Assembly: GCA_020137815.1 (NCBI GenBank)
Contig: CM035351.1
Location: 3,038,001 to 3,102,000, forward strand
DNA length: 64,000 nucleotides
DNA from: Hormiphora californensis
Taxonomy: Eukaryota; Animalia; Ctenophora
Direction of reading: 5' to 3'
The translations under genes were made by a program, and so were the position numbers. Shown here one piece after another: positions 20,501 through 23,500 of the stretch. The notes under the pieces are model-generated. The model had not been told where the DNA came from. It was given only the letters and a program-made list of their open reading frames with translations, and did not search any database. How positions within the stretch are numbered: the stretch's first letter is position 1; each line of letters begins with the position of its first letter.

Positions 20501-23500
20501 CTTGGTTACGCCGCCTTGGTGTTTCCTTCTTTAGATGAGCTGCTCTAACCGCACATTTCCTTACTCAGAGTCGAACCCGAAAACGGAAAGAAGAGATAAT
20601 CCAGGTGTCCCTTGATAACTGTGTGCTGTGTCCCTTCACCAGTTTTGTGGCGGTAGAGGAGAGGGTAGAGGGTGAGAAAAATGATGAAACCCCTGCGATA
20701 TCTGACCTGGTGGAGGCCCAGTATACTGATATCCTCCCCTGCATGGCATTCCAAGTGAGTGATACAGCAATTCAGGAGCCGACCGAAACAAGTAAACAAC
20801 CAATCAGAACTCGCTATTTAGGTCACGTGACTGGTTATCAGCCAATCAGGGACCAGTATTTCCTGATTCGGTCGGTTCCTGACAGCAATTATGCCATGAT
20901 TTCCAATACCTCCTGTATGCGCTTGCCGCTTGTGTTAGAAGGATTCTAACAAGCCCAGTATGTTTATATTCTAGACTTTAGTAAGTAACAATCTTACCTT
21001 CTCTCTCACTTTCAGGATGAGAAAGCGGATATCATCCACGCAACTCCAACAACTAAAGACCCTGACATCCCTTACAACGAGACTGAAGAGGAAGAAGAGC
21101 ATGATCTGCCTGAATTAGAAGACACAGAGAGCTATGATACTGATAGTGACGATTATTATTCTCGTGGTGACATTGTCATGGATCTGGGGGCTCACAAGAT
21201 CAAGACAGGTTTCAGTGGAGATGACTCCCCTCGGTCTATCATCCCTTGTGTTGTGGGGAAGCCCAAATACCAGGGTGTCATGTTTGGGATGGGTTGTAAA
21301 GATACCTATGTGGGAGATGAGGCGGTTCATAAGGCTGGGGTGATGGAAAAACAGAACCCTATGCTAAGAGACGAAGCACAGGTAGATGTGTGTCGGATGT
21401 ATGGGGCCATGAAGAAAGACCGTGGCGAATCACCATCAGGACCGGAGGTTTCCACTTTGGTGCTGGATATGGGTAGACACTCTGTAAAGGCTGGGTTCTC
21501 TGGTGAAGACCACCCTCAAGCTGAGTTTCCTCCCCTTGTAGGAAGGCCCAGACATCGGGGTGTTATGTGTGGAATGGGCCAGAAGGACAGTTATGTGGGC
21601 GGTGAAGCTTTGAGCAAGAGAGGTATCTTGACATTGGTTAACCCGCTTGATACAGGAGTACAGAGAATGGCACTAATACCAAGTTCTGCAGCCCTAAAAT
21701 CACAAGTAGCTTGCGGATCTGCAATGGAGAAGGCAGAAGACGATGATGATTCCTCTGGATCGTCCTCAGTGGGTGAAAGACTAAAACAATTACTATTCAA
21801 CCCGGGAGAGGCCAGTGATGGATCAGAATATGATGATTATGGGTGTTGTGGTTCCTCTGGATCCTCTGGTTGGGAAGAGGAGGGTAAAGTGAAGGAGATG
21901 AAACATGCTGCCCCTCAGAAATATGAACATTTGGTAACTTCTGGAGGTGCCCCGCCGCATCAATATGAGCATTTGTTGGCTCCTGGAGGTGCTCCCCCTC
22001 CTCCCCCTCCCGCTCCCCCAGTAATGGATATCCGCCCAGGACGGGGCCGTTCAGCACCTCGAGCACCGCCCGTCAAGACCAGAGGACCACCCAAAGTTGG
22101 ATATGCAGCACCTGGTGGTGGTGGTTCAATGGCGGCGCCTCGAGCTCCTGGTGGTGGTGGTTCAATGGCGGCGCCTCGAGCTCCTGGTGGTGGTGGTTCA
22201 ATGGCGGCGCCTCGAGCTCCTGGTGGTGGTGGTTCAATGGCGGCGCCTCCAGAATCTGATGCAGCTTCAATCATGGATTCTCTTCGATCCAGGCGAGTAA
22301 AGGCAGCACCACCTCCAGGACTATGTGGAGGGCCACCACAATGGGAGCCAATGGGAGCACCTCCAGCACCTCCAGCACCAATGGGAGCCCTTCCAGCACC
22401 CTGTGCAGCACCACCACCACCCCGTGCAGCACCACCAGCACCCCGTGCTGGACCACCACCTCCAGCACCCCGTGCAGCACCTATGTCCCGTAAAAAACGA
22501 GCAGCACCTACTCAATTCGATACAAGAGTCGAATCATTATCCTCATCAGGAGCAGAACGGTTCCGCTGCGTTCCTATCCGGCAACCCAACCAAGCTGAAC
22601 CAGCCTCACTTCATTCTTACGAAGAGTCCTCTTCCGCTGATAAATTGGATGATTTGGTTCACAGGGCCTTAGAGATGAAGGATGAGTGTTTTTCTGTCAC
22701 ACAACAAGAGGAAGTAATGAGGGAGTATGATTCTGCTATAAGCTGCTATCTAAATGAGTACGATCCCACCATCCCCGATGTTTATGATCCAAGTATACTT
22801 TATAGTGAAGATCTCAAATGTGACAAAGTTGTATACGAGGGGCAATCAAGTATAGAAGGAGATTGGTTGTCAAACTACGAGAGCACCGAGGAAGAGGAGT
22901 CTAGTGATGATGATTCAGAACAGGATTCCCCCGATTACTACCAAGAAGCGATGACAAAGAAGAGAGATGGAATGAGAGATGATAATGATAGTTCTAGTAG
23001 CGAAGAAGATGATAGTAGATACAGATCAGAGGCAGAGGGTGTAAGAAAGAAGATAACAAAGTGGGTGGAGAAAGTGCCGGACCGACCACCGATCGAAGAC
23101 AATACGATGAAGAAACACGTGCTAATATCCCTTACTAAATATCCTGCATATGTTGACATCCTTGCATCAGCAAGCAGTCTCCAGGAACCTCCTAATATTG
23201 ACGAGAAGGAGTTCCAGATTGTATACGAGGGCATGTTAGATCACGTTAAGAGGCCCACTAAGGATCACCAAGAAGCGGCAATACAAATGGCACGGTACGA
23301 ACCGGTAACAAAGATTCTGGAAGGAGATGTGTTTTACAAGACAGGCCTGAAGGCACTACTACAGGGTGGGATAAGGAGTTGGGGAGTGGAATTGAGTGAA
23401 CCTGTCCTGGCTTACTTCAAACTTCTCTCTTTCGTTACCATGCCTTGGCGATATAACATTGAAACTATGACCATAGTGAGTAAATAAAATTTCACAAATA

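Follow-up and report, generated by a model that had tools for sequence, protein, structure and literature searches.

Tandem actin D-loop fragments in the PARP4 linker of Hormiphora californensis as a possible self-mimic bait

To our knowledge, the function of vaults and of PARP4, the vault PARP, has been an open question for decades, and no driver is known for the fast change of the large PARP4 exon in mammals. Described PARP4 proteins share the domain order BRCT-PARP-VIT-vWA, an H-Y-E triad, a very large and variable exon after the ITIH-like core and a helical C-terminal domain. The Hormiphora gene has the same arrangement, with a candidate C-terminal domain; its actin fragment is duplicated and its MIDAS is degenerate. 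Sensors with a built-in copy or mimic of an effector target are known from the integrated decoys of plant NLRs and from the protease tripwires NLRP1 and CARD8. In contrast to NLR decoys, the scaffold here is a VIT-vWA ADP-ribosyltransferase with many short pieces per linker, and sensing is only proposed. The closest known bait systems are those of alpha-2-macroglobulin and of ITIH4, a VIT-vWA relative. In ITIH4, the same VIT-vWA core is followed by a long, species-variable, Pro-rich segment that serves as protease bait, and the protease is then held via the vWA MIDAS (PMC7793589, partial text). Unlike PARP4, ITIH4 is secreted, has no PARP domain and needs an intact MIDAS, and the available part of that paper does not describe the bait as copies of host proteins.

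In primates and bats, positive selection on PARP4 falls on the matching linker (PMC4038475, partial text), in agreement with what the earlier note had stated for the large primate exon. Cleavage or modification by viruses has been proposed to take place in this segment, which separates the ITIH-like region from the vault-binding domain (PMC10450202, partial text). Host-protein domains have also been noticed: 14-3-3, actin and ubiquitin-related domains were reported on PARP4-like proteins of amoebae, lancelet, sea urchin, Capsaspora and Salpingoeca (Perina 2014; PMC4245714, partial text). The available part of that paper places the actin domain in choanoflagellate, filasterean and amoebal proteins and holds neither a D-loop-centred fragment nor a bait reading. 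The actin-on-PARP4-like architecture as such is, by this partial text, already in print. The earlier note had left the novelty of the architecture to be checked and had counted it against its idea if the architecture were common and described. This is partly so, because the actin domain is in print and many invertebrate PARP4 proteins carry the fragment, whereas its fragment nature and a bait reading were not found in print.

Our literature search covered CC-licensed PMC and bioRxiv texts without figures and supplements. Within these texts we found no bait or decoy reading of PARP4, no D-loop-centred fragment, no account of its spread in invertebrate PARP4 and no VAMP, HSP70, stalk or CTD pieces; the bait reading and the linker pieces are absent too from the available parts of PMC2964712, PMC10539598 and PMC12280208. 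The word 'actin' does not occur in the main text of the Dictyostelium Vwa1 paper (PMC10539598), and the search returned no paper that treats ctenophores together with the major vault protein.

The window analysed here is a stretch of 64,000 nucleotides, to which all positions refer. It contains a PARP4 model at 11557-24080 (+) with 22 exons and 2,127 amino acids, in which every border is GT-AG and the sole stop is terminal; three exon borders were placed by hand with the Bolinopsis orthologue as guide. The model is collinear with this orthologue, P0001. It encodes, all on the plus strand, a BRCT domain (exons 1-2, 11557..11870; 56% identity to the BRCT of P0001, on which Pfam BRCT is weak), a PARP catalytic domain (exons 6-8, 13053..13845; Pfam PARP E 6e-7 on one exon, 48% identity to P0001), a VIT domain of approximate limits (exons 8-11, 14005..16240; 67% identity to P0001, on which Pfam VIT gives E 3e-31), a vWA domain of approximate limits (exons 12-16, 16740..18200), the end of the ITIH-like core (exons 17-18, 19834..20754; 56% identity to P0001), a linker of 677 amino acids and a divergent PARP4-type C-terminal domain (23347..23719). 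The latter, a candidate for the interaction with MVP, matches weakly a profile from the C-termini of 51 relatives (i-E 9e-4 over 100 positions), and a PDB search of 23047-23475 gave no MINT match at E up to 10. The H, Y and E residues of the catalytic triad are present in the triad motifs of both Hormiphora and Bolinopsis, so that the intact triad reported for this gene holds. Because the PARP domain lies mid-protein, after BRCT and before VIT and vWA, and carries the triad, we assign the gene, by these features, to PARP4 (clade 5 PARP). In the vWA MIDAS of Hormiphora the third serine is replaced by proline and the aspartate by alanine, whereas the MIDAS is intact in Bolinopsis and most relatives checked.

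The linker is encoded by exon 19 (21016..23475, 2,460 bp), which is the counterpart of the variable large exon in vertebrate PARP4. By composition it is rich in Pro (11.5%), Gly, Ser and acidic residues, and it includes a 36-bp in-frame repeat in four copies (22107..22249, +).

The neighbours of PARP4 are ordinary animal genes. A spartin-like gene (MIT plus Senescence), an acyl-CoA synthetase and a NUDIX hydrolase lie head-to-head with it at 3779-10132 (-), and folliculin follows downstream at 27898-30236 (+). A 207-codon frame with a hydrophobic start and no Pfam match runs antisense inside intron 10 (14969-15592, -), and intron 18 holds a high-copy repeat (20772-20885) that occurs in many RNA contigs with unlike flanks. 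Downstream of PARP4, 24809-25712 is a perfect 473-bp tandem duplication, possibly an assembly artefact.

Exon 18 (20569-20754) and exon 19 (AG...GT) meet in frame at phase 0, and exon 19 is in phase 0 at both ends. This join, proposed in the earlier note, occurs independently in the Bolinopsis RefSeq models XP_063679343.1 and XP_063679342.1. The two RNA runs, X1 and X2, both come from one study and hold only a fraction of 0.06-0.07 of the words. Pieces from X1 and X2 lie inside exon 19 at 22795-23038 and 22973-23122, and X1 contigs show a splice joint at 23911-24009 (GT..AG). A perfect piece of an X1 contig begins exactly at 23573, which corrects the start given previously for the exon after exon 19 (23572). 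The contigs thus support the last exons and parts of exon 19, while the junction 20754/21016 is covered by none of the RNA contigs listed for X1 and X2. X1 depth at 21492-21615, from pieces beyond the contigs listed, was discarded as support for the modules, since it could stem from ordinary actin mRNA.

Two actin modules lie in the open frame 20989-23487 (832 codons). Module 1 (21169..21363, +; Pfam and tblastn) corresponds to actin residues of about 7-70 and is 50% identical to actin, and module 2 (21445..21657, +; Pfam and PDB) corresponds to about 3-74 and is 67% identical. Pfam Actin matches each of them alone, with E 4.4e-13 (profile 7-65 of 410) and E 8.5e-14 (profile 3-68), and PDB actins match the module region at E about 1e-24. 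Two actin segments in this one exon had been seen before; the limit of module 1 at 21363 agrees with the actin match, whereas the peptide quoted for it ends at 21339. The full four-subdomain actin ATPase fold is absent, with only about residues 3-74 (~18% of actin) there, just as previously claimed, and tblastn found no further actin sequence in the window. As also claimed before, the D-loop residues G42, V43, M44, M47 and K50 are retained in both modules and N12 and G15 of the nucleotide-binding site are altered. Compared with conventional actin, Arps and whole-actin fusions, the modules are 50-67% identical to actin over residues 7-72, but here there is only a fragment, its phosphate-loop residues are lost and it is not an ATPase.

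Between the two modules, pS is 0.67 and pN 0.32 over 57 codons. AlphaFold gave module 2 a pLDDT of 38 and a pTM of 0.16 with only 19 aligned rows, and for the VIT-vWA protein P0076 it returned a confident ITIH-like core with pLDDT <50 over most actin parts, near-whole actin included (shallow alignment). Because the near-whole actin of P0076 was also unfolded with shallow alignments, these results are uninformative on the modules. A processed actin pseudogene and a separate gene were considered as readings of the modules and rejected.

In Bolinopsis microptera, P0001 (LOC134814927) matches the module region with E 1e-46, as 1 of 69 candidates among proteins of 1,457-4,160 amino acids, and carries PARP, VIT and two actin stretches by Pfam. 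Module 1 is 59% and module 2 about 75-76% identical between the two ctenophores, compared with 48% for the PARP domain and 18-25% for the linker outside the modules (19% before, 18% between and 25% after them). The actin modules are conserved islands in a variable linker. In the tree, module 1 groups with module 1 of Bolinopsis (95/81) and module 2 with module 2 of Bolinopsis and P0015 (86/82). Because each module groups with its counterpart, the duplication should predate the split of Hormiphora and Bolinopsis.

Outside the modules, the only 5-mers common to both ctenophore linkers are ERFRC and YDPTI, and 8 of 300 shuffles also reach two. The ERFRC pentapeptide (22555..22569, +), a possible second actin-derived piece, is shared with P0001 and P0080 and occurs in the actin P0004, while tblastn with actin reaches E 5.6 only. 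The Ras switch-I-like octapeptide EYDPTIPD (22756..22779, +) shares YDPTI with P0001 and P0099; the P0099 copy matches Ras entries at E 0.4-1.3, and a PDB search of 22501-22860 at E up to 10 gave no Ras match for the stretch of Hormiphora itself. Both candidate pieces are weak and individually not significant. Ras and SNARE gave no PDB match in 22501-22860, 21667-22080 and 23047-23475 (E up to 10), and Pfam over 21667-23484 gave a low-complexity match alone. A SNARE piece was not found in the Hormiphora linker by profile, and Bolinopsis scores just i-E 0.13.

A HMMER search of 1.84 billion representatives was made with the core end plus modules of Bolinopsis as query, and the best 150 of 3,476 matches were examined. 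The actin fragment sits at the same place, behind the core, in PARP4 of Nematostella, Hydra, Mytilus, Magallana and Macrostomum and in P0011 and P0016, with Pfam Actin found in 6 of these 7; a fragment confined to ctenophores is ruled out by the five named genera. It also occurs in the vWA proteins P0003, P0116 and P0076, in which no PARP domain was found and which are of the VWA5A/BCSC-1 type, with a vWA, the actin fragment and a short C-terminal helical domain. The architecture search called for earlier hence finds partial actin behind the core both in PARP4 of other animals and in VIT-vWA proteins. P0080, P0086, P0099 and their kin combine the fragment with PARP4-type C-termini and are probable fragments from large exons.

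Every actin copy in the PARP4-like proteins ends by about residue 74. Over 26 copies, identity to actin is 92% in the D-loop (40-51), 79% at 52-58, 76% at 18-32 and 28% in the phosphate loop (12-17); N12 is kept in 0 of 26, G15 in 1 of 26 and Y69 in 0 of 25. A D-loop anchor served to find the position of these copies, and the 1 of 25 proteins without this anchor was excluded; the actin counts and the D-loop conservation are inflated because the search query contained the modules and the copies were anchored on the D-loop. The fragments keep a surface and not the ATPase. Moreover, they have shared derived changes that are absent from actin, and a tree places 25 modules on one side and 11 actins on the other (91/89; P0016 excluded), which allows a single old origin of the modules. 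Two degenerate DNA scans of metagenome contigs gave 0 matches to the module, and the ESM Atlas gave no usable match for P0003 380-663.

Some further proteins were observed in these searches. The P0080, P0086-P0124 group (P0086 from ENA contigs) comprises about a dozen predicted proteins. In these the actin fragment lies close to the N-terminus and the C-terminus is of the PARP4 type, and some of them have an actin C-terminal tail or a SNARE piece as well; they are probably large exons of an expanded PARP4 family. P0076 has actin of about 40-373 followed by actin of about 5-48, a permuted actin with the D-loop twice, and P0033 consists of six tandem degenerate copies of actin of about 10-60 without other domain.

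Actin is not the only host protein represented behind the core. Among 58 further PARP4-like representatives from the best 150 of 3,476, Pfam found 14-3-3 in 8, ubiquitin in 7, synaptobrevin in 4, 60S acidic ribosomal protein in 3, HSP70 in 2, and the Rpb1 repeat, kinase plus PTB, and AP5B1_C in 1 each. VAMP is present in lungfish, 14-3-3 and VAMP in amphioxus, 14-3-3, stalk and CTD pieces in Dictyostelium purpureum, and ubiquitin in Sinanodonta and Biomphalaria. The core end was found in 92 of the best 150, and 65 of these have at least 150 residues behind it. At least one piece was carried by 24 of the 65 in five profile queries (ubiquitin 9, actin 8, 14-3-3 6, HSP70 4, SNARE 4), a count that includes self-hits of the queries; the four SNARE matches are such self-hits, because this profile was built from six Pfam-positive copies. 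The same five queries detected no piece in 41 of 65. All 32 profile hits lie behind the ITIH-like core, and 5 proteins hold two or more kinds.

A scan of 67 linkers, with patterns picked after viewing the linkers, gave CTD repeats in 6, stalk-like tails in 5, H3-tail-like stretches in 2 and the actin C-terminal tail in 1. Recurrent 6-mers over 82 linkers number 208 compared with 0.05 in shuffles, with the D-loop leading and many from one group of near relatives. In 5 of 7 embedded ubiquitins with intact di-glycine (P0012, P0013, P0023, P0054, P0089), the next residue is proline, which hinders host deubiquitinases. Seen by eye, the PTB-type domain and kinase piece in the linker of P0145 are presumably talin-F3-like and Ste20-like, and the WH2-like stretches followed by acidic-tryptophan motifs in the linkers of P0066, P0095 and P0122 resemble, as we take it, the end of WASP/SCAR. 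Judged from the sequences, the tandem actin pair appears to be the ctenophore version of a wider linker pattern, and the variety of further host proteins represented at this place supports the decoy idea on comparative grounds.

The actin D-loop is a target of MICAL, of actin cross-linking toxins and of DNase I, and toxins or effectors are directed at VAMP, the ribosomal stalk, Ras switch I, ubiquitin and 14-3-3. We propose, with a probability of roughly 0.55, that the PARP4 linker forms an array of self-mimic baits that is linked to an ADP-ribosyltransferase and comparable to the bait region of ITIH4. The two conserved, non-nucleotide-binding, D-loop-centred actin fragments would likely act as bait within this array, where they would be exposed as flexible linear mimics. 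In Hormiphora, the linker would be cut, modified or bound by microbial proteases, modifying enzymes or binders that target actin, and in relatives attackers of ubiquitin, 14-3-3, VAMP, HSP70, the ribosomal stalk and the Pol II tail would hit it. A cut would part BRCT-PARP-VIT-vWA from the vault anchor at the C-terminus. Either a cut or binding would place the attacker where the vWA and PARP domains can reach it, and the array as a whole is predicted to signal such attacks on host hub proteins to the ADP-ribosyltransferase. The duplicated actin piece with the changed D-loop in module 1 would broaden the range of attackers caught. The degenerate MIDAS of Hormiphora speaks for release or ADP-ribosylation as the output here, as opposed to a hold on the protease like that of ITIH4.

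We favour the bait array because the pieces keep an exposed site, drop the function of the donor, vary by lineage and occupy a positively selected segment, and also because ITIH4 uses such a segment as bait and the bacterial protease grimelysin cleaves actin at G42-V43 (PMC7956362, partial text). This site, which the earlier note had named as the target, is retained in both modules. At the sequence level, the gene joins a copy of a host effector target without its own function to an enzymatic scaffold, as in an integrated decoy, where the status as effector target is taken from a paper for G42-V43 alone. The observation of the earlier note is confirmed and its interpretation partly supported; the function is predicted. 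Several points count against a bait. ITIH4 trapping needs the MIDAS, which is degenerate in Hormiphora; the donors are all abundant housekeeping proteins, as neutral capture would predict too; and 41 of the 65 PARP4-like proteins are without a profile-supported fragment in the five queries. In addition, the linker may be hidden, because PARP4 docks inside the vault cage (PMC12280208, partial text).

The same conservation pattern would be expected if the pieces were docking mimics without a defence role, which recruit D-loop binders, and elsewhere binders of ubiquitin, CTD, SNARE or stalk, as vault cargo or PARP4 substrates. The vault interactome is altered by PARP4 loss (PMC12280208, partial text), Perina 2014 explained the added domains by a connection with the cytoskeleton and with signalling (PMC4245714, partial text), and the WH2-like stretches seen by eye in dictyostelid linkers fit as well. 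However, the set of pieces varies between lineages and covers unrelated pathways, and the mammalian linker is positively selected (PMC4038475, partial text); a dock with a housekeeping role should be stable. Docking is the main rival of the bait array, and we regard it as rather unlikely. An account specific to actin, in which the pieces tie PARP4 and vaults to filaments or sense host actin redox or proteolysis, such as MICAL oxidation of D-loop methionines, could draw on M44 and M47 in both Hormiphora modules and on the recurrence of the piece from ctenophores to molluscs and in VIT-vWA proteins, on one side of the tree from actins. It seems quite improbable to us, as it explains actin alone and not the other pieces at the same place, and the fragment is without most of actin; the cleft that receives a D-loop lies in the missing part. 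We do not favour docking of vaults on F-actin, offered earlier as a second option, as an explanation for all cases, since in most relatives the pieces at this site of the linker are not from actin.

Lastly, the linker might be a sink that tolerates pieces of abundant transcripts, or the models might be chimeric, and the fragments would then have no function. All donors are highly expressed, the contigs listed do not span 20754/21016, and several relatives are automatic gene calls. Nevertheless, the same fragment with the same limits and place is found in six named animal species and has derived changes not in actin, module 2 is conserved better than the catalytic domain, and pN is well below pS between the copies. 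Such a sink is the least probable of these readings, and for the actin modules it is already largely refuted.

Returning to the bait array, a wider form of it may be considered, which we hold tentatively and at slightly less than an even chance. PARP4 and intracellular VIT-vWA proteins may be old, eukaryote-wide sentinels, whose disordered linker would be a lineage-specific library of self-fragments that copy effector-attacked sites, and attack would free or aim the ADP-ribosyltransferase. The members proposed for this library are the actin D-loop, ubiquitin, 14-3-3, VAMP, HSP70, the ribosomal stalk, the Pol II CTD, the histone H3 tail and Ras switch I. If this is true, the vault would have a definite part in effector-triggered defence, and there would be a reason for the positive selection seen on human exon 30.

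Overall, the variable exon of PARP4, so far unexplained, becomes a directly testable hypothesis. A linker of recognisable effector-target pieces would offer a concrete mechanism with named fragments, cut sites and a catalytic readout. If the bait reading is true, integrated decoys would extend from plant NLRs to an ADP-ribosyltransferase common to animals and amoebae, and the linker of each species would be a readable list of the host proteins that its microbes attack.
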